Shown: positions 14,399 to 51,025 of the stretch, in pieces | How the letters are laid out: each line of letters begins with the position of its first letter | How positions within the stretch are numbered: position 1 is the first letter of the stretch | NCBI GenBank assembly: GCA_938091905.1 | Contig: CALKOM010000001.1 | Location: 47,138 to 111,137, forward strand | DNA from: an uncultured Verrucomicrobiales bacterium | GTDB taxonomy: Bacteria > Verrucomicrobiota > Verrucomicrobiia > Verrucomicrobiales > DEV007 | Length of the DNA: 64,000 nt | Direction: 5' to 3' | Notes under the pieces: model-generated | Databases searched by the model: none | Seen by the model: only the letters and a program-made list of their open reading frames with translations | Told to the model about the DNA's origin: nothing | Made by a program: the position numbers and the translations under genes

Positions 14399-14498
14399 TC
14401 AGGGATATGTTACCCCAACGAGGCGCGTTTGTCCCGGTGGCAAACCAGGGAAAGATTCTTCTGGGATGCCGCTTGGGTTCAGTCCAAGGTTCACTACC

Positions 14499-23239: not shown

Positions 23240-23315
23240 GGGAACGAGAGTTCACCATGTGTGGTCCTTTGACAACTTGGATACCCTTGAAGGGTTTACA
23301 GCCTCAAGAATCCTT

Positions 23316-25625: not shown

Positions 25626-25631
25626 ATCGTC

Positions 25632-35159: not shown

Positions 35160-37322
35160 ATGGTAATTTGATGTGTTGGTTACTGGTTGTAGCATTGTCT
35201 TTTTTGTCTTGTCTTTATCGCTGCCAAGGAGTTTTTCAAAAGACTCCCCGTGTCGCCTTCGGTCCATCGGGCGTTGATCAGTGACCTTGGAGATCCCTTT
35301 TTAGCTCAGGCCTACCGACCAGAGAGTCTGTGGTGGCCCGGGGTGGATCTACTATTACAAGGTTACGGAGATGGCCGCATGTCATTTGGGATATGGGATC
35401 CCGAGACCCTTTGGGAATCCCGAGACCCGTTGGCGCCGGGAAGACCTCGACACGAGACCGCTGGAAACCCTTTCTGGTGATGGCAAGCACCTTGCCAGGG
35501 CAGTTTATGACGAAAAAGCAAAGAAGGACCCTTTTCAGCTTTACACGTTTCCAGACGGAAAACTCTTATGGTCGAAGGCCTTGGGAGCTCGGAGATTCGC
35601 CTTTGCCGAAGGGTGTCCCTGGCTTTTTGGAGGGACATCATTTCGTCTAAAGGGCCTGACTCGCTACCTGGTAAAGAAGATCGATCTTGCAACGGGAGAG
35701 GTGCTGGAAGTTGGAAGAACCACAAGAAAGCGGAAAGAGCCACATTGGCCAGATCAATGCCTTGGGCGCGTCTAGCAGTTCCATTTATGTCGCGACCAAG
35801 CAGGAGGCGTTTTCACCCGAACTCTGGAAGGAAGAGCGTAAAGCCCTCACGAGTGTCAGATTCCTGCGACTTGATGCGACTACATTCGAAGAGTAGCCGG
35901 TGCCGCTGGATTGCCGAAAAGCCGAAGCTCGAGGCATTCAAGTTAGTCCTAACGGAAAGTAACTTGCTGTCCGCTACATGCACCACACTGGAGTCATGAC
36001 AGCCGATCTCAAGAAGAGATTCTCTGGCACGGACACTAGCAGTCGAGTGACGTTCTCGCCGGATGGCAGTGAAGCCCTTATCCCAGGAAGTAATCGTATT
36101 GTGGTAGAGTCTCTTACTGTAAAGTCTGAGCCGCGATGTTTGGACTTTGGCGCGAAGGGAGTGGCCTATTCGCCGGATGGGTAAGAAGTGGCCTTTTGTG
36201 ATACAGGTGGAGTCTTTCGATATAGCACCGAGACGTGGGAACTACTCGCTGATTTTGATCCTCACCGTACGCACTGTCCGCCCCGTGGTGTTGTCTTTGA
36301 TCCGGGGGGGCAACTACTCGGCTGTTCTTGATGGAGGATCAGGGCACCTTCGGGATCTCAGGAGGTTATCATTGTCCTATTCGCTTATCAGTTCGCGGGA
36401 ATGCGATACCTGTTTCCATGGTCTTGCTATATTGCGAGATGGGGCCACGATCGCTGCCTCAGACGGACGCGAGTTGATTCGATGGGATCTTCCAGAGAGC
36501 GCCTTTCAAGAAAGTGTAACTTCGCCTTCGATCTTCACAGGACGGCGGTTTACAGCACTGGCGTGCTGAGGAAGTGATTTGTCACTGCATTGAGTTGGCG
36601 CCCGCTGGAATTTTGAAGCAGATGGTGGTTCGTTGGGGGGCGAGTTTCGCTGGCTTATGGATGGCAAGTTGCATGAGATTCAGCTCGCCCATGCGCGGTT
36701 ACCGGGCTTGTTGACGTGGGCACTTCACCCAAAGATGAGCGATTTGGTCTCTTTCGGCTGGCATTCAGTGCGGGGTGGTTCTGAGAAGGTATTGAGCACC
36801 TATGATCTCAAGACGGGAGAAAGTAAGCGCCGATGGAAGGACGGGCCGAAATCGACCATTTTCAGTCGAGATGGAAGCCAGATTGTGGATGTCGATGGGG
36901 CGACGTTCCGGCTGTATGGTTGTGAGCGTCGCGTGGAAACTCAAATGATAGAATTGCCCAAAGTTGAGGGTCAGAGAAATTCCCTTCGCTGCCCCGCATG
37001 GAGCTCCAATGGGCGTCTACTAGCAACCGTGGTGCCGCATAATATGGCCTTTGATAGTGGACTAGAAGACTATGATCGCTTGGCGCTTTGGGAGGTACGA
37101 TTACGGAAGTTGCTAGGAGCACTAACTATTCCCAGTAGGGTTCGGCCAAACCAGCTGGTGTTTGCACCTTCGAATGACGAGATCATTAGTGTGCATTCTG
37201 ATAAGTTACTCATGCTTTGGGATGCTAAGAAGATTGTTCCCTCGGTGGCAAGACGCCCTAGTGTGAGAATAAGCCATCTGATCGGTCGGACTGGGTTGAC
37301 GGGAGGGAAATATGCGACCTAA
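35160..37322 (+). pseudogene. degraded WD40/beta-propeller protein
   Basis: Blade motifs are spread over several frames (LSGDGKHLA, VTFSPDG, VAYSPDG*, LIRWDL, FSRDGSQI, AWSSNGRLLAT, LMLWDAK), with stops at 35894, 36182 and 36567 and several frameshifts. 5' boundary is approximate. Confidence 0.7.
35394..35428 (+). repeat. imperfect tandem duplication, period 19 nt
   Basis: TGGGATCCCGAGACCC followed by TGGGAATCCCGAGACCC; ATCCCGAGACCC occurs at 35398 and 35417. Confidence 0.8.
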
Positions 37323-37330
37323 GAAGTAGG

Positions 37331-37935
37331 ATGGGCGTTCGCTACCCTCTGCAAGTGTCTCTGGTCGTTGGATTCTTTCCGAGCTGTGCCGTAGTGAATA
37401 ATGGTCCGAAGGTGTCTAAGGAAACTCTGGTCCACCAAGTGTTCTCGGGGCACGAAGATTATCCGAAGACGATGGCAGTTTATTCAAACGACGAACTTCT
37501 TTCCAAGACGTCGACTGAGAATGCCAAGATCACGATTGATCTCAGCGAGCAGCGAGCACGATTGCTAGTGAATCAGCTCGTCGCGTTTGATGCCCCCTGC
37601 TGCACAGGAAAGGCGGGTAAGCTTAGGCCTACGGGAACGTTCCCCATAAAAGAGAAGATCAAAGACAAGCGCTCCAACATCTTCGGCAGTCTCTATCGTG
37701 GCGGGCGCAAGGTGTTCGGGGTTATCGGCGAAAATACGGTGGTTCCTACGACCGTTATGTGGGGTCGTCTCTGCCGTGCTGGATGCGGCTGACCGACGAC
37801 GGGATCGTCCTCCATGGCAGCAAGTATGTGCACCGATATCCAAAGTCGAATGGCTGCATTCGCATGCCTCATTCCGCAATTTCAGTGCTTTACGGGGCGG
37901 TATAGACGGAGATCCCCGTCCAAGTGGTGCTATAG
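37331..37935 (+). pseudogene. L,D-transpeptidase (YkuD) lipoprotein-like gene, disrupted
   Basis: IDLSEQRA and TGKAG..PTG in the first frame. After a frameshift at the G-run near 37718-37721 the frame reads YVGSSLPCWMRLTDDGIVLHG...KSNGCIRMP. Premature TAG at 37903-37905. Confidence 0.82.
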
Positions 37936-37995
37936 GCAGAAATTCGCTTTTGTTTTTACGGGAGATTGAGGACATTCTGGGGTTTCTTCGACATC

Positions 37996-39468
37996 ATGTT
38001 TAGAATCCCAGGCGAACCCGGTAAAGATATGTGTGACGGCCATCTTGGCCCCACAAGACGTGACGTACTCCGTATCGGCGGTGCGGGAATGATGGGACTG
38101 TCGCTAGGGTCGATGCTCCAGCTGAAAGCTCAAGCTGCTGCTGGTGGCGTTCATACGGGTGGGCCTGGTTGGGGTAAAGCTAAAAGCGTTATCTTGGTGT
38201 ATCTGCAAGGTGGCCCCAGTCATCTTGATCTTTGGGATCCCAAGGAGAATGTTCCTAACAATGTGCGTAGTGAATTCAAGTCGATCCCTACAAAGATCCC
38301 TGGGACGCATTTCACCGAACTGTTACCCAAGCTGGCTAAGGTCAATGATAAGATGACCATGATACGGTCCATGAGCTACACGCCGAATGGACTCTTCAAT
38401 CACACAGCTGCCATTTATCAAATGATGACGGGTTACACGACGGATAAGGTGAGTCCGTCAGGTCAGTTGGAGCCGCCGAGCCCGAAAGACTTTCCTAACT
38501 TTGGTTCTAACGTCGTAAGATTGAAGCCCTCTGATGAGCCGATGCTTCCTTTCGTGATGTTACCTCGCCCACTCCAGGAGAGCAATGTAATCGGTAAGGG
38601 CGGGACGGCAGGGTTCCTCGGGAAATCCTACGATCCTTATACCATGTATCCTGCTGGGGACGACATGGACATGACAAAGATGGCGCGCCTCAAGATTGAT
38701 GACTTGCAGCTTCGTCCAGATGTCTTCTCGGTGCGCCTGCGTCGTCGTGCGTCTCTTCGTGCGGCGATAAACAAACAGATGCCCATCATTGATAAGGCGG
38801 TGGCGGACTACAATTTGAACGAGTATTATGATCGAGCGTTGAATCTCATCGTTTCTGGTCGTGCGCGGGAGGCATTCAATCTTGATGCCGAATCCGAGTC
38901 GCTCCGCGAACGTTATGGGCGGAACACTTTCGGGGACAGTTGCCTCATGGCGCGTCGATTGGTCGAGGCGGGAACGCGCGTGGTCGAAGTCATTTGGCCG
39001 AAGGTCGCGAACTCCGACAACCATTCCTGGGACGTCCATGTGGGATTGTCTAAGCGCATGAAAGATCAATCCGCGCCGATGTTAGATGCTGGCTTTTCGA
39101 CATTGATTGATGACCTCGATGAGCGCGGACTTCTGGACGAGACCTTGGTTGTTGGTGTCGGTGAGTTTGGTCGTAGCCCTGAGAAAGGCGTTTCTACCAG
39201 TGGAAATAACAACAGTGCAGATGGCCGTGATCACTGGCCTTACTGTTACACCGCCTGCATTGCAGGGGCCGGGATCAAGCGGGGCTACGTTCACGGGAAG
39301 TCCGACAAGACGGGCTCGGCACCACTAGAAGATCCTGTTCATCCTGGAGAACTTTTGGCAACGCTGTATCATGCATTCGGGATCGATCCCGAGAGCATGG
39401 TGATGAATCACCTCAATCAGCCACGTGAGCTGGTCAAAGCGAAAGCAGTGACCAGTCTGTTCGCATAG
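37996..39468 (+). CDS. DUF1501 domain protein (stand-alone)
   Basis: [44 protein letters not shown] at 37996. Confidence 0.92.
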
Positions 39469-39521
39469 TCACCTTCGACGCTCGCTGGACATCAGCTAGA
39501 CGGCTCGCCTAAGGTGGCGGC

Positions 39522-40877
39522 ATGAGCACTAGTGCCTCCGAAGAAGTCGAGAATTTCATGGCCGGACTAATCCGGCGAAATCCTGGTGAACCAGAGTTTC
39601 ATCAAGCGGTAAGAGAGGTCGTGGAGACGCTCATGCCGGTGGTGTTAGATAATTCCAAATACCGCGATGCGCAGATCTTGGAACGTCTCACGGAACCTGA
39701 CCGGATCATCATCTTTCGTGTTTGCTGGGAAGACGATCAAGGTAACGTCCGAGTCAACCGCGCTTGGCGGGTGCAGTTCAACAATGCCATTGGCCCATAC
39801 AAGGGGGGACTGCGGTTTCATCCCAGCGTTAATCAGAGCATTCTGAAGTTTCTCGGGTTCGAGCAGACATTTAAGAATAGCCTAACAGGCTTGCCAATGG
39901 GTGGCGGAAAAGGGGGCTCAAACTTTAATCCACGCGACAAGAGTGACCGGGAAGTCATGCGTTTCTGTCAAGCGCTGATGATTGAATTGCATCGACACAT
40001 TGGTGAGGACACCGATGTGCCGGCTGGTGATATTGGCGTGGGGTCTCGCGAGATTTCCAATTTGTTTGGGCAGTACATCCGTTTGTCCAATCGTTACGTT
40101 GGCGTCCTTACTGGAAAAGGCCTTTCGTTCGGGGGAAGCCTGATTCGCACAGAGGCCACTGGGTATGGGTGCGTCTACTTTTGCGAGAATATGCTGAACC
40201 ATGTCGAGGATGGTCTCGACGGCAAGACGGTTGCCGTTTCGGGATCGGGAAATGTAGCACTCTACGCCGCACAGAAAGCGATGAGTCATGGCGCCAAAGT
40301 TTTGACAATGTCAGATTCGTCGGGATTCATTCACGATCCCGATGGCTTGGACGTGGAGAAATGGCAGTTTATTAAGGACCTGAAAGAAGTGCGACGAGGT
40401 CGTATTAAGGAGGCAGCTGAAGAGTTCCCAAGCATCACTTACCATGAAGGTCAGCGTCCTTGGACTGTGCCAGTTCAGATCGCGCTGCCCTGTGCGACTC
40501 AGAATGAGATTAATGAAGTTGAGGCGAAAGAGTTACTCAGCAATGGTGTCATCGCGGTGAGCGAGGGTGCCAATATGCCCACCGACCTTGCTGGTCTGGA
40601 TGCTTTTCGTGAAGCGAAGATTCTCTTTGGTCCTGGCAAAGCAGCGAATGCCGGTGGCGTGGCCGTTTCTGGTCTAGAGCAAAGTCAGAATGCTCTCCGG
40701 CTTTCGTGGTCACGCAACGAGGTGGATTCTCGTCTTCAAGCAATCATGCACGACATTCACAAGAAGTGTGTTGAGCAGGGGACGAAGGAAGATGGCCATG
40801 TTAACTATGTTGATGGTGCCAACATTGCTGGCTTTATGAAAGTGGCAGAAACGATGGTGGCCTACGGAATAGTTTAA
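39522..40877 (+). CDS. gdhA: NADP-specific glutamate dehydrogenase
   Basis: EPEFHQAV, GPYKGGLRFH, GGGKGGSNF, DVPAGDIG, RTEATGYG, SGSGNVA, EGANMP, KAANAGGV. Confidence 0.96.
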   Translation: MSTSASEEVENFMAGLIRRNPGEPEFHQAVREVVETLMPVVLDNSKYRDAQILERLTEPDRIIIFRVCWEDDQGNVRVNRAWRVQFNNAIGPYKGGLRFHPSVNQSILKFLGFEQTFKNSLTGLPMGGGKGGSNFNPRDKSDREVMRFCQALMIELHRHIGEDTDVPAGDIGVGSREISNLFGQYIRLSNRYVGVLTGKGLSFGGSLIRTEATGYGCVYFCENMLNHVEDGLDGKTVAVSGSGNVALYAAQKAMSHGAKVLTMSDSSGFIHDPDGLDVEKWQFIKDLKEVRRGRIKEAAEEFPSITYHEGQRPWTVPVQIALPCATQNEINEVEAKELLSNGVIAVSEGANMPTDLAGLDAFREAKILFGPGKAANAGGVAVSGLEQSQNALRLSWSRNEVDSRLQAIMHDIHKKCVEQGTKEDGHVNYVDGANIAGFMKVAETMVAYGIV

Positions 40878-40884
40878 TCTCGTG

Positions 40885-42822
40885 CTAACGCAGAAACGGT
40901 TTGCCTTGCTGATAGAGCGATAGGCGGCCTTTCAGCTCCTTTATCAACCTGTCATTACGCTGTTTCCGTGCCATGGCGAGCGCACGCTGCGTGAGCTGAC
41001 TGGCCTTCTCAAACTGCTGGTTACTGGCCAGAGCAGTGGCAGCCGTATCGATGGCATGGGGATTGTTTGAGAATCGTTGGAGGATCTTCTGAGCCAAGGA
41101 CAGAGCACGTCTGGGATTGCGGAAAGCCGGGTTGCGACTGGTCGAGAGTACCCAGCAAAGCTGATTGAGTGTTTGGAAATCATCGGGCTTCACTTTGAGT
41201 GCGAATTCGTAGATCGCGGCTGCTTGATCATCTTGTCCAAGACTCTGGTAGGTGTTCCCCAACTGTACTAAGACATCGTGTTGTTTTGGAGCCCGCTTGA
41301 GGAAAGTCTGGAGAATGGTTGCTGCTTCCTTTCCGCGTCGGAGTGCGGTAAGCGTGCGGGCATGGGCGAGCGTCGCTTTGGAGTGTTGGGGATTCAGCTT
41401 CGTTGCCCGTTGGTAGAATGGAAGAGCGATCTTGGGCAAGGCATTCTCCAAGCGATAGGTTTCTCCTAACATATACTGAATATCGGCCTCTTGATAACGC
41501 CGTTTCGCAGCTTCCCCCTCGTCAACCTTGGCGAGCGCCTCTTCGAGATAGCGTCGAGCATGTTCGTTGTAGCCGCCCTCGAGGTAAACTCGAGAAATGG
41601 CCACCGGATGGGTGATAAAGTGATCATTTGACCAGCGACCTGGGAATGGAATGGCATGGTCAGGATGTTTGGAGACGGGTTGTTGTAGGCGCTGGGTCTG
41701 TGCTAGGATCGAGTCTGCCGAGACGGCTCCTTTGGTGAAGCTTACAAGACTTCCACGATGCCAAAGGAAGCTACTAGGCAGAGGGAGGGCTTCCTGTTTG
41801 TAGAGAGTGTTGCGCTGGGCTTGATCGAGAGCCTCGACCATTTCTTGACTGGCACGGCCGGAAGCGAAGGGCCAATTGAGCTTCCTTAGACGTTGCTCCA
41901 GTGCCTTGGGACTTGGGGCTTCCGTACCTTCGATTTTTGACTGAGCCTCTTCGATGTTCAGGGCGACGACTTGAATACCCGCGTTCTGAATGGCCTTATG
42001 TTGCGTTGATAGGAGTTCCATTTCCTTAAGGCAAGGCTGGCACCAGGATGCCCACAGAAGGGTGAGGGTGAGTGGTTGGGTGTCAATGGTGGCGGTGCTA
42101 CCTGACCAGGTGCGGTAGCGAAGCGTCGGTGCAGAACGGGGCTCCGATAGATAGGTCTCCATCGTTGGAGGTGGACTCGGTAGCGTCAACGGTGTTGCTT
42201 TCAATGCAATGGCAGCTTGTTTCGCGGCGGTCGCTTTGCCTGTCCCCTGACGAAGGTGCCATCGGCCGGAGGGTTTCGCTTCGAAAGTCTCGCCTGCCGT
42301 CTGACCTGGCCATGTCACCTGAATCTTTGTTGTTGTGGCTTTGCTACCGAGCCCGAAGTGAAGCCACTTGCTGGACTGGCTTAGGAAGCCATCGCCTGCG
42401 GTGACCTGGCGCGTGAGCTTGGTCCTATCCGAAAGAGTTATGGTGGCGATGGCACCGATAGCATCGCGTGGCGTCCCTTTGCTGGGATCACCTTCGAGGC
42501 GAAGGGCAAGTGTTTTAGCTTTTGTTAGGTAGTCGTTTCGGAGCAGACGCACTCGAGGTCCGGTGCGATTGCTCACCCAGAGATCCAGATCGCCATCTCG
42601 ATCCCAGTCGGTGATGGCAAGGGCGCGGCCGTCGTCTGGCAAACCAAAGCCAGACATCAGGGAGACGTCGGCGAAGCGCTTCCCACGAGTATTGAGAAAG
42701 ACACTATTTGGTTCGCGACCTGAGAAGGAATTGCCGTTTCGGATGCGCGTGGCGAGATCTTGCCAGGCATCGAGGTAGCCTTGGCCCGGAGTGGTAGTTT
42801 CTTTGCTAGGACTTTGCGACAC
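40885..42822 (-). CDS. ASPIC/UnbV + thioredoxin-like (WCQPC) + TPR region; probably the C-terminal half of a UGA-readthrough protein
   Basis: SFSGREPN, DWDRDGDLD, AIGA, GFLSQSSKWLHFGLG, WASWCQPC, C-terminal TPRs. In frame with the upstream ORF; the GTG start has no clear RBS. Confidence 0.8.
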   Translation of the reverse strand: MSQSPSKETTTPGQGYLDAWQDLATRIRNGNSFSGREPNSVFLNTRGKRFADVSLMSGFGLPDDGRALAITDWDRDGDLDLWVSNRTGPRVRLLRNDYLTKAKTLALRLEGDPSKGTPRDAIGAIATITLSDRTKLTRQVTAGDGFLSQSSKWLHFGLGSKATTTKIQVTWPGQTAGETFEAKPSGRWHLRQGTGKATAAKQAAIALKATPLTLPSPPPTMETYLSEPRSAPTLRYRTWSGSTATIDTQPLTLTLLWASWCQPCLKEMELLSTQHKAIQNAGIQVVALNIEEAQSKIEGTEAPSPKALEQRLRKLNWPFASGRASQEMVEALDQAQRNTLYKQEALPLPSSFLWHRGSLVSFTKGAVSADSILAQTQRLQQPVSKHPDHAIPFPGRWSNDHFITHPVAISRVYLEGGYNEHARRYLEEALAKVDEGEAAKRRYQEADIQYMLGETYRLENALPKIALPFYQRATKLNPQHSKATLAHARTLTALRRGKEAATILQTFLKRAPKQHDVLVQLGNTYQSLGQDDQAAAIYEFALKVKPDDFQTLNQLCWVLSTSRNPAFRNPRRALSLAQKILQRFSNNPHAIDTAATALASNQQFEKASQLTQRALAMARKQRNDRLIKELKGRLSLYQQGKPFLR

Positions 42823-44631
42823 GACCTGCCGCCAGTAGAAGCCTCACAAATCACCGGTGTCTTCCTGAGTGATGAAGCCATTGGCCACAATCAAATCTTG
42901 CCAACCGTCATTGTTGAAGTCGGCAAAGGCAGATCCCCAGGCCCAGCGTCCTTGGGTGACAGCAGCGGACACGCTGACATCCTCGAAGCCCTTGCCAGGT
43001 CCGAGATTGTGGAAGAGGGAGTTTCCTCTGGCGTGCCGGACAAATAGATCGCGGGTGGTGGTGTCTTCGTTTGCGAGGAAACGGGCCTGCTTGGCGATTC
43101 GATTACCTGCGGAGGAGAACATGTTGCTAACATAGATGTCAAAAAATCCATCGTTGTCGTAATCACCCCAGGCGGCGGACATTCCGGCAGCGATGTCGAG
43201 CGTACCGCTACTCTCGGCCACGTCAGTGAATCGAATTTGGTCTCGGACCTTGTCTTGGCGGTAGAGATTGTTGCGACCGAAATCATTGGCGACATAGAGA
43301 TCGAGATCGCCGTCCCGATCATAGTCTGCCCACGCTGCTGCATAGCTGTAACGCGTGTTGTTCGCATCGAGCCCCACTCGTTGGGTCACGTGGCGAAAGC
43401 GGAACTCGCCGTCATTTCGCAACAGCGAATTACGGCCGCCATTGGTGGCATCTTGATACGGCACGGGACGAGCTAGGGCCACGTTTCTATCCACGTGCCC
43501 ACGACGATCGTAGCAGGCTGCAAAGATGTCTAGATCGCCGTCCTGATCGTAGTCTGCGGCAGCGAGTGAGTAGGGGACCGCAAAGGGGAGTACCTCGGCA
43601 GAGCGCACGGTGAATCGTCCCGAGCCATCGTTCTCTTGGATAACGAGGCCTTCGGCTACGGAAACGACAAGGTCCTGATCGCCGTCGTTGTCGAGATCAA
43701 TGAAGAGGGCACCTCGGCTAGTTTCTAACCAATCTACTCCGGCCGCAGTAGCGACATCGCCTGCCGTGCCATCGGCGCGTGCAAGGAACAAACGGTTGGG
43801 CAAGCCGCCACTCTGACACACGTAGAGATCCTCCATACCATCACCATTGGCATCGCCAACGGCCAAGCCGTTCCATCCCCCCACTTTGAGGCCGACGCGC
43901 GTATCGAGTCGAGCCAGCCAATGATCCAGACCGTGAGCGAGTTGGTTTTGAAATGCAGGATCGCGACCGACCACTGTGGCTGTCGCTTCTGTGAAGAGAG
44001 CGCCTCGCGTTGATGTGGTGATGACCTCTTCGTAGTCATCGACAATGAAACGTTCCAAGGCGAGTGACGTTCCCGTCCGTTTCCAGCTGCATGACCAAGT
44101 GCTATTGACTTGTAAGTCCTTGCCATCGGAGGTTTCACCATCTAACCGAATTTCTAAGCGGGTTTCCACCCGTGTTGCGGAAGTTTCCACGCCGACCGTC
44201 TTAAACTTTACATTGAGTGGGCCTGTACTTAGTCCCTTGGTTAGACTCAGAACTGCTTGGGTCCAGCCACTGGGCCCATGAAGCTTGTCCGATGCGTCGC
44301 GACCGGCGCGGTGGACTTGCAGGACATCGTCGATGTATGCCTGGTCGCGCTTCGTCGGACGTAGCGGGGCGCCGCGAAAGTTGTGAGCAGCAATTCCTTC
44401 TAATCCGGCTGCTTGAGTGCCAGAGGCGAGCGTTTCTTTGAGGGCTTCAAGGCGCGAGCTGGTGACTTCGGCAGCTTGTTCGCTATCCCAGCCGCCATGA
44501 CTAGGATCGTACCTTGGGGTGGCAATACCAGTACCCGGCACTGCAGGGGGGCTTGTTTGTGCAACGGCGCTAGGTCCTCCTAGGAGGATCGCGATGAAAG
44601 ACAGGAGGGGAACGCGCCACATGGTGAACAT
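40885..44631 (-). CDS. candidate selenoprotein, 1248 aa with Sec at residue 596 (FG-GAP - Sec - ASPIC/UnbV - Trx CxxC - TPR)
   Basis: Single in-frame TGA at 42844-42846 in GAT TTG TGA GGC TTC TAC TGG CGG CAG GTC GTG = DL*GFYWRQVV. A SECIS-like hairpin follows immediately. Confidence 0.72.
42808..42846 (-). promoter_or_regulatory. putative bacterial SECIS element
   Basis: UGA GGCUUCUACUG GCGGCA-GGUCG-UGUCGC AAAGUCCU. The upper 6-bp stem starts 11 nt after UGA, the loop begins with G, and the lower pairing is AGGCUU/AAGUCCU. Confidence 0.7.
42844..44631 (-). CDS. secreted FG-GAP/VCBS-repeat (CRTAC1-like) region; probably the N-terminal half of a UGA-readthrough protein
   Basis: Signal peptide; six DxDxDGxxD-type repeats (DANGDGMED, DLDNDGDQD, DYDQDGDLD, DYDRDGDLD, DYDNDGFFD, DFNNDGWQD). 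Ends ...DTGDL-TGA. Confidence 0.85.
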   Translation of the reverse strand: MFTMWRVPLLSFIAILLGGPSAVAQTSPPAVPGTGIATPRYDPSHGGWDSEQAAEVTSSRLEALKETLASGTQAAGLEGIAAHNFRGAPLRPTKRDQAYIDDVLQVHRAGRDASDKLHGPSGWTQAVLSLTKGLSTGPLNVKFKTVGVETSATRVETRLEIRLDGETSDGKDLQVNSTWSCSWKRTGTSLALERFIVDDYEEVITTSTRGALFTEATATVVGRDPAFQNQLAHGLDHWLARLDTRVGLKVGGWNGLAVGDANGDGMEDLYVCQSGGLPNRLFLARADGTAGDVATAAGVDWLETSRGALFIDLDNDGDQDLVVSVAEGLVIQENDGSGRFTVRSAEVLPFAVPYSLAAADYDQDGDLDIFAACYDRRGHVDRNVALARPVPYQDATNGGRNSLLRNDGEFRFRHVTQRVGLDANNTRYSYAAAWADYDRDGDLDLYVANDFGRNNLYRQDKVRDQIRFTDVAESSGTLDIAAGMSAAWGDYDNDGFFDIYVSNMFSSAGNRIAKQARFLANEDTTTRDLFVRHARGNSLFHNLGPGKGFEDVSVSAAVTQGRWAWGSAFADFNNDGWQDLIVANGFITQEDTGDL

Positions 44632-44673
44632 CCTAGAAACAAGGATGTCTCTAAATCAAGCGGAGAGCTGCCG

Positions 44674-45066
44674 TTACCGGCCCTCGTCCTGAGCTTTCTC
44701 AATGGCGCTCATCAATTCCTCATACTCGTCCCGATCCAGCTTCATCTTCTTGTCTGCCAAATGGGCAGCCAAGGCGCGTGAGAAAGACCCATCGAAGAAC
44801 GTCTTCACGACATGATTGAGCATCTTGGCACCAGTCTTGGCACGAGCAGGCCGAGGCATGTAGAGGTAGTTCCTGCCCTCTTTGCGACGCTTCACAAGCC
44901 CTTTATCCTCTTCAAGGATTTGCAGCATTCGCCGGATTGCCATGGGCGTTGGAGCCTTCGGCAGTTTTGATTGAATTTCGAGCACAGAGGCCTCACCTAC
45001 TTCATAGAGGATATCGAGGATCTGACGTTGTCGCCGAGAGAGATGCTTCTGGAAGTCAGTATTCAT
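44674..45066 (-). CDS. BlaI/MecI/CopY-family transcriptional repressor
   Basis: LSRRQRQILDILY..GEASV.EI, L..LEE.KGLV.R.K.GR.Y.Y.P, V.TFFDGS. ATG at 45066. Confidence 0.9.
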   Translation of the reverse strand: MNTDFQKHLSRRQRQILDILYEVGEASVLEIQSKLPKAPTPMAIRRMLQILEEDKGLVKRRKEGRNYLYMPRPARAKTGAKMLNHVVKTFFDGSFSRALAAHLADKKMKLDRDEYEELMSAIEKAQDEGR

Positions 45067-45092
45067 GGCAGCCGAGGAGTTTGAAGGATCCA

Positions 45093-45108
45093 CGCTATGA
45101 AAGTAGCG
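45093..45108. promoter_or_regulatory. palindrome CGCTA-N6-TAGCG, candidate autoregulatory operator
   Basis: Perfect 5-bp inverted arms 27-42 nt upstream of the BlaI-family ATG. A related half-site CGCTACTTT lies at 45146-45154. Confidence 0.5.
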
Positions 45109-45259
45109 AGACTTATTCGATGGTTCAATGAAAAACCGAGGATGGCGCTACTTTTCTCTTTCCGCCCTGGAGATGAGAAGATGGCTAAATTCACACAAAG
45201 AGCTTGGAGCGGTCACGAGCCACGCTAGAGTCCGTATCTAGGGGCTAGAAGCCACATTC

Positions 45260-46345
45260 ATGAATCTTGACGAAACATTTCCGGAAGAACTTTCCCAACA
45301 GCAAGTCATGGCCATGGTGGCGGCTGCTGAAGCGCGAAAGTCGAAGATGGTCGCGCTCATGATCGCGATTGGTGCCCATGTGGTGTTGATCGGTGGGCTT
45401 CTCTTCGTTGTCTTTGGCGAAGTCCTGGAACGTCAGCCTAATCTCATTATTTCAGCGCCCTACACGCCGTTGGAACAGTTGAAACCGGCCAAAAAAGATT
45501 TGGTTCAGGTGAAGGCGCAGAAGCCTGCAGCGCCCTCCGCATCCATGAGCAAGGTGATCGTTGCTCAAAATGTGGTGAGCGCCATTCCAATGCCTATTGT
45601 GGAGGAGTTCGACGAGGATACCGTCAACTTCGGGACCGGGTTTGGTGAGGGCATGGGTTCAGGGATGGGTGGATTTGGTGGTCAAGGTCGAGGCGGTTCC
45701 TTCTTTGGGACGCCCGCTGCGGGAAACTCTATCATTCTTGTCATTGATGTTTCTACGAGCATGGATCGAGAGTGCGGAGAAAGTGGTATCGCGGCGATTC
45801 GTGCAGAGATCGAACGGACGATCAACGCGCTGACGCCGTCTTCTCGGTTCAACATTATCTGCTTTGGTAATCTTGCTGATGGTTTCAAAAAAGGGCCAGT
45901 GGGTGCCTCTAGCAAGAACAAGAAAGCGGCCATTACTTTCATGAAAGATTACTATACCCGAGAAGGGTTCACTCGCTCGCGGACCGGCAACAACTACTCG
46001 GATAAAGAAATGCCTTATGTGCCTATCCGGCCTGATGATTTCAAAGCAATGAAAGGCACTTCGGGTGGCTCCCGATATGACTTGGCGCTGGTTGCGGCCT
46101 TTGAGCAGGCGCCGGAGACGATTTTTCTCCTTACTGACGGCCAGCCAAGTACCCGGTTGGATGGACAGACGCTCTCTGACCGCGATATTCTGAACATCGT
46201 TAAAAAAGCGGGCCGTCGCACCGGCGGCAGCAAACGAACTGTGGTCAATGGTATTAGTGTAAACGGTATTGCGAAAGGTTTCCTGAGGGACATCGCAAAA
46301 GCTTTCCGTGGCACTGTCAAAGTAATTGAGCCAAAGAAGCTCTAG
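45260..46345 (+). CDS. membrane-anchored von Willebrand factor A domain protein
   Basis: N-terminal TM helix, Pro/Gly-rich linker, MIDAS VIDVSTSM, FLLTDG. Confidence 0.82.
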   Translation: MNLDETFPEELSQQQVMAMVAAAEARKSKMVALMIAIGAHVVLIGGLLFVVFGEVLERQPNLIISAPYTPLEQLKPAKKDLVQVKAQKPAAPSASMSKVIVAQNVVSAIPMPIVEEFDEDTVNFGTGFGEGMGSGMGGFGGQGRGGSFFGTPAAGNSIILVIDVSTSMDRECGESGIAAIRAEIERTINALTPSSRFNIICFGNLADGFKKGPVGASSKNKKAAITFMKDYYTREGFTRSRTGNNYSDKEMPYVPIRPDDFKAMKGTSGGSRYDLALVAAFEQAPETIFLLTDGQPSTRLDGQTLSDRDILNIVKKAGRRTGGSKRTVVNGISVNGIAKGFLRDIAKAFRGTVKVIEPKKL

Positions 46346-46379
46346 AACACCTTAAAATAACACTTACCCTGAATTAATC

Positions 46380-47138
46380 ATGAAGCTAGCATCACTTGTT
46401 ACCACGTTAGGCGTCGTTGGCGCCCTCGCCCTTCCTCTCAGCGCTCAAGATGGGAAGGAAGTTTCTCACGAAGACGGTAGCTACGCCTTTGGTACTCAAT
46501 TCGGGGGGCAGTTTAAGGAGGGTGAAGTAAGTATCGATGATTTCGTTGCGGGCTTCCGTGATCAGCTTTCCGGTAAAAAGACTAGGATCGCTGAGTCGGA
46601 GCTTGAGAGTGCATTCCGAGCGTGGCAGAGCGGTCTTCAGAAAAAGCGCAAAGATGCTGCGGCAAAGGAGGGAGAGGTGAATCTCGCGGCCGCTGAAGCT
46701 TTTCTAAAAGAGAATGGAGCAAAAGAAGGCGTGAAGACCACGGCAAGTGGATTGCAATACATTGTCCTAAAAGAGGGCTCTGGTGTTTCGCCTACGGCGA
46801 CCGATAAGGTAAAGGCCCATTATCATGGAACGCTGGTGGATGGCACGGTCTTTGATAGCTCAAAGGAGCGTGGTCAGCCTTTTGAGACTCAGGTGAACCG
46901 TGTGGTTAAAGGTTGGATCGAAGGTCTTCAGCTTATGAAGCCGGGTGCTTCCTATCGATTCTTCATTCACCCAGATCTGGCGTATGGACCTCGTGGGCAG
47001 AACAAGATTCCGGCGAACTCGTTACTGATCTTTGATCTCGACCTGATTGAGGTTATCTCGGCACCCAAAAAGAAGCCAAAGATTCAAGCGGTGACGCCAC
47101 CTGTGGCGATTCCGCCGCTAAAGAAGAAGGATAAGTAG
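46380..47138 (+). CDS. FKBP-type peptidyl-prolyl isomerase (FkpA/Mip-like), exported
   Basis: Signal peptide, SYAFG, TASGLQY, HYHGTLVDGTVFDSS, GWIEGLQLM, LAYG, IPANS.LIFD. Confidence 0.94.
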   Translation: MKLASLVTTLGVVGALALPLSAQDGKEVSHEDGSYAFGTQFGGQFKEGEVSIDDFVAGFRDQLSGKKTRIAESELESAFRAWQSGLQKKRKDAAAKEGEVNLAAAEAFLKENGAKEGVKTTASGLQYIVLKEGSGVSPTATDKVKAHYHGTLVDGTVFDSSKERGQPFETQVNRVVKGWIEGLQLMKPGASYRFFIHPDLAYGPRGQNKIPANSLLIFDLDLIEVISAPKKKPKIQAVTPPVAIPPLKKKDK

Positions 47139-47153
47139 GCCATTGGTTTCACG

Positions 47154-47573
47154 ATGATCGCTGGGACCGAGCGTTTCACCTTTGGCACGCGTGGGAAGGG
47201 CACCTACGAGATCACTCAGGAAGTCCAAGCCTGTGTCGATCGGGCAGGATTAGAGCAAGGGACGGCTACTATCTTTGTGCAGCATACGAGCTGCAGTCTT
47301 GTACTTTTTGAAAATGCAGATCCCAGCGCTCGCACGGATCTGCATGGCTACTTTGATCGATTGGTGCCAGAAGATGCGCCCTACTTTGTGCATACTTACG
47401 AAGGTCCAGATGACATGCCGAGTCACATTCGCATGGCACTGACACGCTCATCTGAGGTCATTCCGGTCAGTGATGGTCGTCTTTTGTTAGGCACCTGGCA
47501 GGGAATTTTCCTCTTCGAGCACCGGACGGCGCGGCATCAGCGCAAACTTGTGGTGTCGGTCATCGGTGTTTAG
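47154..47573 (+). CDS. yjbQ: YjbQ/UPF0047 family protein
   Basis: HTSCSL..ENADP, H..EGPDDMPSHI, LGTWQGIFLFEHR. Confidence 0.9.
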   Translation: MIAGTERFTFGTRGKGTYEITQEVQACVDRAGLEQGTATIFVQHTSCSLVLFENADPSARTDLHGYFDRLVPEDAPYFVHTYEGPDDMPSHIRMALTRSSEVIPVSDGRLLLGTWQGIFLFEHRTARHQRKLVVSVIGV

Positions 47574-47610
47574 CCTGACGTTTCTGCCTGTTTGCTTTCT
47601 TCCTCACGAA

Positions 47611-47785
47611 TTCGTTGTACTAGGCTCTGTGCCCTCTCCACTTCGAGCACGCCAAGCACTGCGTCTCTTCCCAACACTTGCCGCATTCCGGGCAGGTCTC
47701 GTTCAAATCAAACATGTTTCAGAAGCATCCGCAACGATAAGACCAATGGTCGGTCCTATCTGATTGTTCATCTCCACTTGGGATA
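47611..47785 (-). pseudogene. eroded small Cys/Trp-rich (zinc-ribbon-like) protein
   Basis: The minus frame reads DHWSYRCGCF*NMFDLNETCPECGKCWEETQCLACSKWRGHRA*YNE, with stops at 47719-47721 and 47620-47622. It is absent from the ORF track. Confidence 0.55.
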
Positions 47786-47796
47786 AGAGGAAAGCC

Positions 47797-48258
47797 CTAT
47801 TTGAAGGCGTAGGCCACAGCCCAGTGGGCTTCCTGTTTGTCCTTGGTCGTGATCTTAAAGGCGATGTAATAAGTGCCGGATTTAGGCACAGACACTTGGG
47901 CGCCAATCCAATTCGAGCCCTTCTCAACTTTGCCTTCGAAGGACTTGGTTCCTTTCTTGTTGTAGACCGCGATTGCCATGGTGGAGTCATCAGACTCGGT
48001 GCCGACCCAGAACCAGTAAGAGTTTCCCTTAACCAAATGGTGCTTGATAGCGTAGCCTTCGCCTGAGGCGGAAGAACCTTGCCAGAAGTCTTTGCGAAGA
48101 GTGTAGCCGCCTTTCTCTGAGACATGTTTCTCGGCACCCTCAAGGGCGAAACTGAGTGCATCGACAACGAATGCTTGCGCCTGACTGAACATAAAAACAC
48201 ATGCTAGGAGGTAGGTGCCGAGCCGGTACAGAGAGGAGTGTGAGCGCGCTGTCGTCAT
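47797..48258 (-). CDS. hypothetical secreted protein (small beta-sandwich-like)
   Basis: Signal peptide ending AQA; ATGA overlap with the upstream gene; SGTYYI motif. Confidence 0.7.
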   Translation of the reverse strand: MTTARSHSSLYRLGTYLLACVFMFSQAQAFVVDALSFALEGAEKHVSEKGGYTLRKDFWQGSSASGEGYAIKHHLVKGNSYWFWVGTESDDSTMAIAVYNKKGTKSFEGKVEKGSNWIGAQVSVPKSGTYYIAFKITTKDKQEAHWAVAYAFK

Positions 48259-49067
48259 GGTGTCAGGGTCTCCTTTCTCAATTGCGCGCTGATACTCTGG
48301 ATGTCGGCTACCCGCTGCTTTGAGATGACGCCTTCGTCGGTCATCAGTGGTTGTAGCTTGTCCAGACCAGCGATGATCTTCTTCATCCGTGGGCTTTTCT
48401 GAAAGCTTCGCACTTCTTTAAAAGTGGTTGTGAAATGGTCTAACAACTGAGGCTGATGAAGAATTTCTGATTTCTTGGCACTGTAGTCTCGGTTGATGAG
48501 CGCGGTGATGATTTCGGTTCCTCGAATCCAGCCTCCTACACTGACGCATTGCGCAAGGTCTTGGTCGCGACGCTTCTCCATTTCATCGCGGACAGTTTGG
48601 CGTGTGGCGTCAAATTCTTCGCGGACGGCGCTCCAGTCGCCATCGTTAGCTTCATCGATGATGGCCTTTGTGTGCTTGATCACGGCACTCCTTAATCCTA
48701 ACTCTTCCGCAACTGAAAGCACGGTACGACCGATGGAGCGGATCGCTTCGCGGTCCTGCGCTTCGACCGCGAGGAACCCCTCGGCCACCACGCGTCCCAG
48801 AAAGAGCGCGTACTGATTTCGATCTCTGCAGGTTTCCCTCTCCGGGACCTTGAGCTCATCACGCCAGTCATTTCTCGCGACGTCGAACTTGTCGAGTACA
48901 TTGAAGATCTCGCTTGGAATCGGGACGACAACCTTCTTGTGCTTCTTCGCGATCTCACTAAATCTAACGACGTCTGCTTCATCCGCCATGGCGGCGATGG
49001 GTGCAGCGAGAAGAATCCCGAGGGCAGGCAGAACCTTGCTGCGGGACAGGGAATGGAGTGATTTCAT
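48255..49067 (-). CDS. hypothetical secreted helical protein
   Basis: Signal peptide ending AMA-D; 270-aa ORF coupled to the downstream gene. Confidence 0.72.
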   Translation of the reverse strand: MKSLHSLSRSKVLPALGILLAAPIAAMADEADVVRFSEIAKKHKKVVVPIPSEIFNVLDKFDVARNDWRDELKVPERETCRDRNQYALFLGRVVAEGFLAVEAQDREAIRSIGRTVLSVAEELGLRSAVIKHTKAIIDEANDGDWSAVREEFDATRQTVRDEMEKRRDQDLAQCVSVGGWIRGTEIITALINRDYSAKKSEILHQPQLLDHFTTTFKEVRSFQKSPRMKKIIAGLDKLQPLMTDEGVISKQRVADIQSISAQLRKETLTP

Positions 49068-49212
49068 AAAGACAGCACGGAAGATAAGCTGGGCGACTGG
49101 ATTTGCCAGAACTAGTTCGGGTCGACGGGCAGCATGTTAGACGGGAGAAGGGGTGAATTTCTCGTCAGGAATGACTTGCGGCCAGGCACGATGGGGCGCA
49201 GAGGTCACGCCC

Positions 49213-50259
49213 ATGGAGCCAACACCCATGGACGATTCCCGATTCGCTGATCTGCTCACGCAGTTCAGTCGGAAGTCGATTCTTGTGCTTGGCGATGTGA
49301 TGTTGGATCGCTTCATTTGGGGGAACGTCTCCAGGATTTCTCCGGAGGCGCCTGTTCCTGTGGTGCACGTCCAGCGCGAGTCTGCCTACCCCGGGGGCGC
49401 AGCGAATGTGGCGCGGAATCTCCTGCCCTTTGCCGGTCAGGTGCATGTGATGGGGGTGCTCGGTCCAGGTATGATGGGTGACCTCTTGCGAAAAAATTTC
49501 GAGGAAGAAGGTCTGTCGACGGAAGCGCTGGTGGTTGATGAGGGCTATGAGACGATCGTGAAGACGCGGGTAGTCGCCCGAAGTCAGCAAGTAGTGCGCA
49601 TTGACCGGGAAACGCCTCGCTCAGTAAGTTCGAGGGTCGTGAAGCAAATGAAAGCGCACTTCTCAGAGCTACTGCCTTCGTTGGATGCGATTATTATCGA
49701 AGACTACGCGAAAGGTCTGCTCGGCCAGGATTTCGTTGATGCCGTCATCGCTGAGGCGGCAGAAGCGGGCGTTCCCGTGACCGTCGACCCGAATCCTAAC
49801 AATCCGCTTAGCTGGCGAGGTGTGACCGCCGTGAAACCGAACCGCATCGAGGCGTTCCAGGCCGCGGGATTGAAAGACGAGGGATTAGGTGATGACCTGG
49901 CATCGGATCCGATCTTGCTTGAGCTCGGTCAACGATTGCACGATCTGTGGGACTGCCAGCACCTCCTCATTACTCTGAGCGAGAGGGGGTTGGTATTGCT
50001 GAGTCGAGATGAGGGGCCTTGGCATAGTCATCCGCGAGCACGGGAGGTCTTTGATGTTTCAGGTGCGGGAGACACAGCCATTGCGCTCTTTACTCTAGCG
50101 TTGTGTTCAGGAGCGACTGCCCGTGAGGCGGCTCACCTCTCGAATCACGCCAGCAGTCTCGTGGTTGGGAAGGTTGGAACCGCCACGGTCACTCCCGAGG
50201 AGTTGACAATGGCGATTAGTGGCGACTACCTGCAGGGCAACGCTTCTCCCGAGCACTAA
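49213..50259 (+). CDS. rfaE1: D-glycero-beta-D-manno-heptose-7-phosphate kinase (HldA/RfaE domain I)
   Basis: LGDVMLDRF..G.VSRISPEAPVPV, PGGAANVA, KPNRIE, VFDVSGAGDT, VGKVGTA. Start is 49213 or 49228. Confidence 0.92.
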   Translation: MEPTPMDDSRFADLLTQFSRKSILVLGDVMLDRFIWGNVSRISPEAPVPVVHVQRESAYPGGAANVARNLLPFAGQVHVMGVLGPGMMGDLLRKNFEEEGLSTEALVVDEGYETIVKTRVVARSQQVVRIDRETPRSVSSRVVKQMKAHFSELLPSLDAIIIEDYAKGLLGQDFVDAVIAEAAEAGVPVTVDPNPNNPLSWRGVTAVKPNRIEAFQAAGLKDEGLGDDLASDPILLELGQRLHDLWDCQHLLITLSERGLVLLSRDEGPWHSHPRAREVFDVSGAGDTAIALFTLALCSGATAREAAHLSNHASSLVVGKVGTATVTPEELTMAISGDYLQGNASPEH

Positions 50260-50260
50260 C

Positions 50261-51025
50261 ATGAAAACAAAAGTCTACGGTTTTATTCCCGCCCGCTGGG
50301 CTTCGACTAGGTTTCCAGGGAAACCTTTGCACATCCTTGCAGGGAAACCCCTCATCCAGCACGTCTGGGAGCGCTGTCTGAAGTGTGAGGAGCTGGACCA
50401 CGTGGCTGTGGCGACGGACGACGAGCGAATCGCCAATGCAGCACGCACGTTTGGCGCCGACGTTTGTATGACACGTGCTGATCATCCCAGTGGCTCGGAT
50501 AGAATTGCCGAAGCTGCTTCCAGGTTCGAGGATTGTACCCATGTGATCAATGTTCAAGGAGACGAGCCGCTCATTGAGATCGGCCTTGTGAACACTCTTG
50601 CTCAACGTCTTCGGGAGGATCCACAATTGCCGATGGTAACCGCGGCGAATCCGCTGACTGACAGCGATTCGGTGAACAATCCAAATATTGTCAAAGTCGT
50701 GCTTAACAAACGGCAAGAAGCCCTCTACTTTTCCCGCAGCGTGATTCCACACGGGCGAGAGCGTCATCCAGGCACCACCTGGTACCGGCACCAAGGGATT
50801 TACGGATACTCGAAGGAATTCCTTCTACAGTACGTCCGGTGGGAACCTACCCCCTTAGAACTCACCGAACAGTTGGAGCAACTGCGCGCGCTTGAGAATG
50901 GCGCCACCATTGCCGTTGTCCTAGCAGAAGACGACGCAATTGGCGTTGATACGCCTGAGCAGGCAGACGAGGTCGCACGGTTAATCGAACAACGGGCGAC
51001 GATGACTGAGGGGAATCCATCATGA
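50261..51025 (+). CDS. kdsB: 3-deoxy-manno-octulosonate cytidylyltransferase
   Basis: IPARWASTRFPGKPL, SGSDR, INVQGDEP, ALYFSR, EQLEQLRALE. Confidence 0.96.
   Translation: MKTKVYGFIPARWASTRFPGKPLHILAGKPLIQHVWERCLKCEELDHVAVATDDERIANAARTFGADVCMTRADHPSGSDRIAEAASRFEDCTHVINVQGDEPLIEIGLVNTLAQRLREDPQLPMVTAANPLTDSDSVNNPNIVKVVLNKRQEALYFSRSVIPHGRERHPGTTWYRHQGIYGYSKEFLLQYVRWEPTPLELTEQLEQLRALENGATIAVVLAEDDAIGVDTPEQADEVARLIEQRATMTEGNPS

Follow-up and report, generated by a model that had tools for sequence, protein, structure and literature searches.

Candidate selenoprotein family with FG-GAP propeller and ASPIC/UnbV domains, encoded across an in-frame UGA codon in Verrucomicrobiota and Planctomycetota

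An in-frame UGA codon proposed to encode selenocysteine

In a DNA stretch of 64,000 nucleotides (nt) from an uncultured Verrucomicrobiales bacterium (contig CALKOM010000001.1, forward-strand positions 47,138 to 111,137; the whole stretch is termed the window, and positions refer to it unless a locus is named), two neighbouring open reading frames (ORFs) almost certainly represent, as judged by sequence comparison, one gene for a large exported protein with an internal UGA read as selenocysteine (Sec). With high confidence, the region 44631-40885 (minus strand; the strand had not been stated in the preliminary description of this region) is assigned to a single gene, the codon UGA596 of which would be decoded by the bacterial SelB/tRNA-Sec system. 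Selenocysteine at residue 596, as already proposed in the preliminary description, is strongly supported because the UGA is conserved among related genes, is followed by a covarying hairpin of the selenocysteine insertion sequence (SECIS) type and is linked to the decoding machinery (a sel cluster adjoins the gene in two related loci, L059 and L062), and because TGA acts as an ordinary stop codon elsewhere.

The upstream ORF (595 amino acids (aa); 44631..42844, minus strand) starts with ATG and ends at the TGA at 42846-42844; the downstream ORF (645 aa; 42822..40885, minus strand) lies in the same frame. Translation of 44631..40885 with TGA read as U yielded 1248 residues followed by a stop, with the site in the context ...FITQEDTGDL-U-GFYWRQVVSQSP... 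As U596 was the sole departure from translation table 11 over 1248 codons, the gene contains no other lesion, and the initial observation of two ORFs split by one in-frame UGA was borne out as a single non-standard step. The GTG from which the listed 645-aa ORF starts encodes Val in the joined frame; counted from the UGA it is codon +8, and it lies within the hairpin. The elements of the recoding site are as follows:

40885..44631, minus strand: whole coding sequence of the proposed selenoprotein, 1248 codons plus TAG stop, with UGA596 as selenocysteine; one open frame with a single TGA
42844..42846, minus strand: in-frame UGA, codon 596, the proposed selenocysteine codon (TGA in 88/88 related genes from 80 loci)
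42833..42843, minus strand: spacer between UGA and hairpin, 11 nt, codons +1 to +4
42816..42832, minus strand: SECIS-type hairpin, 17 nt, with 6-bp stem and 5-nt loop GGUCG

The closest relative (locus L003, metagenome-assembled genome (MAG) of an uncultured Verrucomicrobiales bacterium) is syntenic with window positions 37167-50434 at 80-82% nucleotide identity and has kept the TGA. Between the downstream halves of the two genes, the differences were distributed over the three codon positions as 75/49/238, and the differing codons comprised 195 synonymous and 106 non-synonymous ones; judged by this pattern, the half 3' of the UGA evolves as coding sequence and purifying selection acts on both halves. 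Elsewhere in the window, TGA terminates 13 of the 50 other long ORFs. A six-frame scan of the window for other genes with in-frame TGA gave spurious pairs only besides the selenoprotein gene, and no second SECIS site was detected in the window by the SECIS covariance model.

Conservation of the UGA codon among related genes

The N-terminal ORF was searched against a set of 5.8 billion proteins, and the best 120 clusters at 90% identity (59-99% identity to the query) were examined: All 120 ended with the same ...DL. HMMER was run exhaustively against 1.84 billion cluster representatives (50% identity) and gave 2982 matches at E values up to 1e-30; among the best 150, 127 stopped at the site and three stopped there with a variant motif, the remainder comprising nine full-length proteins with a sense residue, nine giant multi-repeat proteins and two fragments. 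The family is thus a large one that is systematically cut in two in the databases, since 127 of the best 150 (50% level) and all of the best 120 (90% level) clusters are stored as truncated "VCBS/FG-GAP repeat" proteins. The expectation that standard gene callers would report two genes was confirmed by the public records, in which the N-terminal half is given as a complete protein of approximately 580-640 aa.

At the DNA level, a scan of genome contigs confirmed 586 related stretches, and the best 80 loci were compared. In all 80 the codon was TGA and the frame continued beyond it; with the additional paralogues this held for 88/88 genes, and including the window gene for 89/89. The stop codon at the site was invariably TGA and never TAA or TAG, although the 88 TGA-bearing relatives had diverged to 40-86% protein identity. 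Conserved TGA or Cys in homologues at the motif DL[C/U]xFxWR, named initially as support for selenocysteine, was found in the form of this invariant TGA and of a Cys in 10 of 120 full-length relatives. A sense codon in close relatives, which would have pointed to a simple nonsense mutation, did not occur: The close relatives all possessed TGA.

The frame remained open for at least 541 codons 3' of the TGA in 74 of the 86 locus genes examined; eight were cut by the contig end and four had a later defect. The downstream half runs for 214 codons before a stop in L002 (TGA at 7807) and for 267 codons in L011 (TGA at 7846), and in both the thioredoxin-like WxxWCxPC motif resumes in another frame; these are frameshifts that represent either errors of assembly or copies in decay. 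Seven loci contained multiple copies of the selenoprotein gene (two each in L047, L056, L058, L063, L076 and L080, three in L057), and every copy had its own TGA and hairpin.

By taxon label, the 80 loci were distributed among Verrucomicrobiota (42), Planctomycetota (30), Acidobacteriota (3), Krumholzibacteriota (1) and a Chloroflexota-labelled MAG (1), with three loci unlabelled. What this sample demonstrates is that the TGA is conserved inside a large clade; it is no measure of how frequent the TGA form is across the whole family, since truncated forms underlay the query alignment and the loci were the best matches, so that TGA forms are enriched. As far as these labels and the stored protein records indicate, the family is widespread in bacteria and split in two by annotation pipelines.

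SECIS-type hairpin and codon context

All 87 aligned genes shared one layout past the UGA, namely 11 nt and then a 17-nt hairpin composed of a 6-bp stem and the loop GGUCG. Among the 81 distinct sequences used for the pairing statistics, 98.8% of the cells were paired, compared with at most 67.5% in controls with slid partners. Compensatory variation was present at pair 4 (GU 43, AU 26, CG 11, GC 1) and at pair 6 (AU 80, GC 1), the C-G variant of pair 4 consisting of a synonymous Arg-codon change coupled to a Ser-to-Ala change. The covariation score (0.150 versus 0.058 in shuffles) was reached by none of 500 shuffles, and the same helix was predicted independently by RNAalifold. A covariance model built from the 87 genes retrieved two further genes from outside the training set.

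The hairpin also left its mark on codon usage: The normalised synonymous codon entropies of codons +5 to +9 were 0.53, 0.17, 0.24, 0 and 0, while 173 other columns of conserved degenerate codons in the same genes had a mean of 0.91, and four of the five hairpin codons lay below every control. Codon +1 encoded Ser in 83/87 genes and was written both as AGY and as UCN; because of this dual spelling, selection at the protein level is indicated for the stretch that separates the UGA from the earliest codon at which translation could restart. The Leu codon preceding the UGA (window 42847-42849) was UUG in 82/87 genes (normalised codon entropy 0.14), and the base following it was A in 79/87 genes (G in the window, position 42843). 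The constraint on the context therefore reaches beyond the hairpin.

The bacterial SECIS model as outlined in PMC13188914 specifies a loop of 3-9 nt with G in the first two loop positions, a stem of 4-16 bp, a distance of 16-37 nt from the UGA and a minimum free energy of -7.5 kcal/mol or lower. The hairpin conforms to it with its 5-nt loop opening with GG, its 6-bp stem and 17 nt between UGA and loop; its folding energy (-7.3 kcal/mol alone, z -3.1; -11.2 kcal/mol for the 41 nt from the UGA) is weighed below.

Selenocysteine machinery

A tblastn search with the E. coli SelA, SelB and SelD proteins against the window and the 80 loci gave matches in L059 and L062 only. In both, the selenoprotein gene is followed on one strand by tRNA-Sec, selD, selA and selB in this order. 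The tRNA-Sec genes (Rfam RF01852; L059 4895-4984, L062 4977-5066) scored 61.7 bits compared with a gathering score of 47, and selD, selA and selB each exceeded the NCBIfam cut-off. A third locus, L053, contains the first 41 nt of the same tRNA-Sec at its cut end. The linkage represents one lineage instead of three independent cases, as L059 and L062 belong to sister species (89.8% identical) and L053 carries the same tRNA. ARAGORN reported no tRNA-Sec in the window or in any locus, including L059 and L062 where the Rfam model scored 61.7 bits; because these two were missed, the ARAGORN negatives carry no weight. The planctomycetes P1 and P2, which harbour ASPIC/FG-GAP selenoprotein candidates, are reported to contain the full Sec machinery (Kim et al. 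2016, PMC4807772).

Domain architecture and export

The joined protein is divided into the following parts:

44557..44631, minus strand: predicted signal peptide of about 25 residues (Arg, hydrophobic stretch and Ala-Val-Ala before Gln, read from the translation)
43927-44559, minus strand: N-terminal domain, residues 25-235, without Pfam match; Trp48, Glu51, Lys144 and Trp183 are invariant in an alignment of 42 sequences
42532..43884, minus strand: FG-GAP/VCBS calcium-binding beta-propeller, residues ~250-700, assigned by Pfam, motifs and the match to CRTAC1 chain 9etn_A
42298..42462, minus strand: ASPIC/UnbV domain (UnbV_ASPIC, PF07593), residues 724-778 (Pfam 4.8e-15, 55.6 bits versus a cut-off of 23.4)
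41764..42147, minus strand: putative TlpA/ResA-like thioredoxin-fold domain, residues ~829-956, with the motif WCQPC (Cys864/Cys867, codons 42031-42042)
40960..41586, minus strand: C-terminal TPR repeats, residues 1016-1224 (several Pfam TPR families; NCBIfam PrsT-like TPR 6.6e-21)

The propeller was recognised by FG-GAP_3 (PF13517; 2.4e-39, 134 bits, six stretches) and FG-GAP (PF01839; 5.8e-20, 71 bits), both above the cut-offs. Calcium motifs of the DxDxDG type were located at residues 260, 312, 360, 436, 490 and 571, and then at 675. The UGA therefore cuts through the propeller, as U596 lies between the sixth and seventh motif; this agrees with the initial description of a UGA that interrupts the FG-GAP repeat series. 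With FG-GAP/VCBS repeats and UnbV_ASPIC in one read-through chain, the protein has the domain combination that defines the CRTAC1/ASPIC-UnbV family.

The tentative assignment of the thioredoxin-fold domain rests on matches below the Pfam cut-offs (AhpC-TSA at residues 858-956, 25.1 bits versus 26; Redoxin, 20.7 versus 26.6), on weak matches to the NCBIfam TlpA, ResA and DsbE models (TlpA: 33 bits versus an equivalog cut-off of 230) and on the PDB chains of ResA (1st9) and TlpA (1jfu), which matched at approximately 1e-5. The N-terminal domain gave one weak PDB match, to an iota-carbonic anhydrase (7c5x, E 5e-4), and this match did not recur with the family profile.

Export of the protein, as stated in the preliminary description, is plausible: Besides the N-terminal hydrophobic signal of the window protein, a crude hydrophobicity survey found a signal-like hydrophobic N-terminus in 76 of the 81 family genes with complete 5' end (a count biased upwards, since the best of several possible starts was chosen), many with a lipobox-like Cys.

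Residue at the proposed selenocysteine site and possible function

In 120 full-length homologues, the residue aligned with U596 was Asp (32), Glu (31), Ser (11), Leu (11), Cys (10), Gly (6), Ala (6), His (5), Asn (3), Arg (2), Ile (1) or Tyr (1), with one gap. Of the residues that the preliminary description had named as evidence against selenocysteine, Trp was absent (0/120), while Gly and Arg did occur (6/120 and 2/120), in distant homologues only and never in close relatives.

In a tree of 180 sequences, built without the 15 homologues that reach or exceed 1500 aa and without 12 locus genes that are incomplete, all 75 Sec forms fell into one clade of 94 tips (support 0.90). The non-Sec tips of this clade possessed Ser (6), His (5), Cys (4) or, once each, Gly, Arg, Ala and Asp, and 62 of the 63 Asp/Glu forms were positioned outside of it. 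The CxxC motif of the TlpA-like domain was intact in 74/75 Sec forms and in 5/5 His, 3/10 Cys, 3/11 Ser and 4/63 Asp/Glu forms. A Cys at position 643 was present in 65/75 Sec forms and in none of the Asp/Glu forms.

The 17-nt hairpin, starting 11 nt past the UGA, most probably recruits the SelB/tRNA-Sec system to UGA596. The product would then consist, in order, of signal peptide, N-terminal domain, Sec-containing propeller, ASPIC/UnbV domain, TlpA/ResA-like WCQPC domain and TPR repeats, with Sec carried in the conserved propeller loop DL-U-(S/G)F(Y/F)WRQVV. Outside the cytoplasm, the selenol could act as a redox-active nucleophile that reacts with an oxidant or substrate; the TlpA-like CxxC domain of the same chain would return the reacted selenol to its reduced state, and Cys643 might be the resolving residue in most family members. 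This recycling of a redox-active selenol by an in-cis TlpA-like domain, suggested by the CxxC/Cys643 pattern and by analogy with the reductase role of TlpA, is put forward tentatively, as an idea falling somewhat short of probable.

Several observations weigh against the redox proposal. The window protein itself has Ser (not Cys) at position 643. The association of Sec with CxxC possibly reflects shared ancestry, because an independent-pairs test of Sec versus CxxC or Cys643 had two usable pairs on supported branches only (p 0.5-1). Moreover, a role as metal ligand fits the residue spectrum of the site about as well. According to this alternative, Sec is decoded but binds a metal (e.g. copper or another soft metal), and the TlpA-like domain keeps the site reduced for the metal. 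The residues found across the family (Asp, Glu, His, Cys, Ser, Sec) are mostly metal ligands, with Ser, His and Cys prevailing among the alternatives within the Sec clade; the propeller is composed of calcium-binding repeats; and TlpA is described as periplasmic reductase of the copper-binding Cys pairs of ScoI and CoxB (PMC6669012). However, Gly and Ala also occupy the site (6/120 each), no second conserved ligand set was identified near it, and the positions separating Sec from Asp/Glu forms revealed no His/Cys cluster besides CxxC and Cys643. A metal-binding selenol is regarded as rather unlikely. A search for DsbD or CcdA as neighbours found none, the sole tblastn match with E. coli DsbD being the selenoprotein's own thioredoxin-like domain in L035.

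More speculatively, and with doubts prevailing, the redox reading could be extended to an uncatalogued class of extracytoplasmic beta-propeller selenoenzymes, of which the window protein would be the founding example. Their Sec would reside in a calcium propeller of the CRTAC1 type instead of a thioredoxin fold, and a TlpA-like CxxC reductase domain of the same chain would serve it. If this were true, these enzymes would rank among the selenoproteins of widest occurrence in Verrucomicrobiota and Planctomycetota from sea and soil and would offer the first catalytic clue for the whole ASPIC/UnbV-CRTAC1 superfamily, the gene being parked beside selC-selD-selA-selB in one lineage.

Alternative explanations for the UGA codon

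The arguments against selenocysteine decoding as such concern the machinery, the hairpin and the site. Neither selA, selB and selD (tblastn with the E. coli proteins) nor tRNA-Sec (Rfam) was found in the 64-kb window, which gave no match to any Rfam RNA family. The sel linkage was observed within a single subclade, and tRNA-Sec was not found in the other 77 loci. The isolated hairpin is, at -7.3 kcal/mol, marginally weaker than the model threshold of -7.5, and longer stretches folded no better than shuffles (z -0.49 for 41 nt, +1.43 for 81 nt). In the related candidates of Kim et al. (PMC4807772), bSECISearch is reported to have found a SECIS element in only three of four. Finally, the site is not a conserved Cys in the wider family, where Asp and Glu predominate.

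Two of these arguments, the machinery not seen in the window and the many homologues with a non-Cys residue at the site, would also suit a read-through of the UGA by an ordinary residue (near-cognate Trp, Cys or Arg, or a reassigned code), with the hairpin merely stimulating the read-through. An alternative genetic code was rejected, since TGA ends 13 other long ORFs in the window. Trp was found at the site in none of the 120 full-length homologues, the hairpin fits the bacterial SECIS model and mirrors apex and spacing of the E. coli fdhF element, and tRNA-Sec, selD, selA and selB adjoin the gene in L059 and L062. Read-through by an ordinary residue is in consequence considered quite improbable.

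A further possibility is that translation ends at the UGA and a separate protein starts from the GTG eight codons on, the hairpin being a regulatory or coupling signal between two real genes. The N-terminal half is indeed given as a complete protein of approximately 580-640 aa in gene calls and public records, and codon +8 is GTG in 85/87 genes. A restart, however, would not require the same frame, which is kept in 89/89 genes, and the stop is TGA throughout. Codons +1 to +7 are conserved as protein with synonymous changes and match the stop-free full-length homologues; a Shine-Dalgarno-like motif ahead of codon +8 was present in 0/87 genes, two of which lack a start codon at this position; between the halves, the minus strand showed no site resembling a promoter or terminator; and the split would fall within the propeller, between its sixth and seventh calcium motif. 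The existence of two genes is very improbable on these grounds.

That the gene is a pseudogene or the stop a sequencing error has a practically negligible probability: A lone stop in an otherwise intact gene does resemble a recent nonsense mutation, and later defects exist in 4/86 locus genes, but the same TGA recurs in 88 other genes at 40-86% protein identity including the syntenic closest relative L003, both halves appear to be under purifying selection, and conservation of the TGA across relatives excludes a nonsense mutation.

Neighbouring genes

On the strand of the selenoprotein gene and 43 nt ahead of it, a 139-aa ORF (44674-45093, minus strand) encodes a repressor of the BlaI/MecI type ("Penicillinase_R", Pfam 2e-19). 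Blastn matches over its stretch in L001-L003 suggest a syntenic arrangement, and co-transcription of the two genes is possible. A large ORF (about 1000-1500 aa) coding for CotH kinase, lamin-tail (LTD) or bacterial TSP3-repeat domains adjoins the selenoprotein gene in 34 of 81 loci (L013, L017, L019, L007, L036 and others). In most cases it immediately precedes the gene in the same orientation, the median gap being 83 nt. The window lacks this ORF, which gave no functional clue. In two Roseibacillus/Akkermansiaceae loci, MISL RNA (RF03079; 313 and 327 bits) is located a few kb downstream of the selenoprotein gene (L021 12796-13652 and L040 12621-13528, both minus strand).

Further features of the window include three gene pairs of PSCyt/DUF1549/DUF1553 (PSD1) plus DUF1501 type and one lone DUF1501 gene (10617-14398, minus; 14361-18358, plus; 23259-27071, plus; 37966-39468, plus). 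PSD1/DUF1501 gene pairs are typical of Planctomycetota and Verrucomicrobiota. The ORF at 29028-30872 (minus strand) encodes ankyrin repeats and, at the C-terminal end, a YkuD L,D-transpeptidase domain.

Earlier reports and significance

The protein lies outside the classical selenoprotein families, as had been stated initially: Table 1 of a 2026 review (PMC13188914) lists 119 selenoprotein families and subfamilies without an FG-GAP, VCBS, ASPIC or CRTAC1 entry, and none of the 18 NCBIfam families matched at E values up to 0.01 is a selenoprotein model. Names of FG-GAP/VCBS/ASPIC/CRTAC1-type domains are absent from the main texts of PMC13188914, PMC12013277, PMC13326102, PMC2398784 and PMC9312934, and the domain names and the WRQVV motif are absent from the supplements of the deep-Sep, BSepDB, GOS and Sargasso papers. 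The sole earlier trace in the texts and supplements searched is Table S9 of Kim et al. 2016 (PMC4807772), in which ASPIC/FG-GAP selenoprotein candidates are listed, each annotated as two genes; one planctomycete has three copies. Term searches in the main text and S2 Text of that study turned up no discussion of them.

Taken together, the recoding mechanism would be the known bacterial one, and the family would represent an uncatalogued selenoprotein with an in-ORF SECIS element. Three features would be unusual, namely the position of Sec in a propeller loop outside a thioredoxin fold, the mostly non-Cys nature of the site in homologues and the fusion in cis of a CxxC reductase domain. As the Sec position is mostly non-Cys in the wider family, searches based on Sec/Cys pairs may have missed it. 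A family model that includes the Sec position would mend many gene calls, and the family would add a big exported selenoprotein without thioredoxin fold at the Sec site in phyla that are poorly covered by selenoproteome surveys. To our knowledge, ASPIC/UnbV and CRTAC1-like proteins have no known activity; a conserved propeller loop that carries Sec, in a chain that has also retained a CxxC domain, would mark a candidate active site in ASPIC/UnbV-CRTAC1 proteins that is open to mutation and assay.

Comparison with known systems

The recoding element most closely recalls that of E. coli fdhF (UGA140, in-ORF SECIS, SelB; K-12 sequence), where an 11-nt spacer likewise separates an in-frame UGA from a 17-nt stem-loop. 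Both the apex of the fdhF SECIS and the hairpin of the window gene have the heptamer GCAGGUC at stem top and loop, and the first loop base is nt 19 past the UGA in fdhF and nt 18 in the window gene. In contrast to the plain 6-bp helix with 5-nt loop described here, the computed fold of fdhF has a 4-nt GGUC apical loop atop a longer lower helix. The likeness in sequence and fold does not extend to the proteins, as the window-gene product is unrelated to formate dehydrogenase.

At the protein level, CRTAC1 (cartilage acidic protein 1; chain 9etn_A, E 4e-13 and 6e-14) likewise consists of an FG-GAP calcium propeller followed by ASPIC/UnbV in one secreted chain. It has no Sec (Ser aligns with the site, in a low-confidence alignment), differs in the loop and blade after the Sec position and does not contain the TlpA-like and TPR parts; we know of no enzymatic function of CRTAC1. 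TlpA of Bradyrhizobium (weak matches to chains 1jfu and 4txo) shares a WCxPC-type motif in an exported thioredoxin-like domain. TlpA is, however, a stand-alone, membrane-anchored protein, whereas the domain likened to it by its sequence is fused in cis to a propeller protein.

The candidates of Kim et al. have the same domain description, and the closest NCBI match given for them, an acidobacterial protein, has Gly at the site; so does our homologue P0114. Since Table S9, as the place where they appear, offers a table row and no alignment, conservation or covariation analysis, they are assigned to the same family by description only. Other extracytoplasmic selenoproteins with a TlpA-type domain are likewise thiol/selenol redox proteins, but in these Sec replaces a Cys of the thioredoxin-fold CxxC; in the window protein, both Cys residues of the CxxC are kept and the proposed Sec is located approximately 270 residues upstream, in a loop of the beta-propeller.

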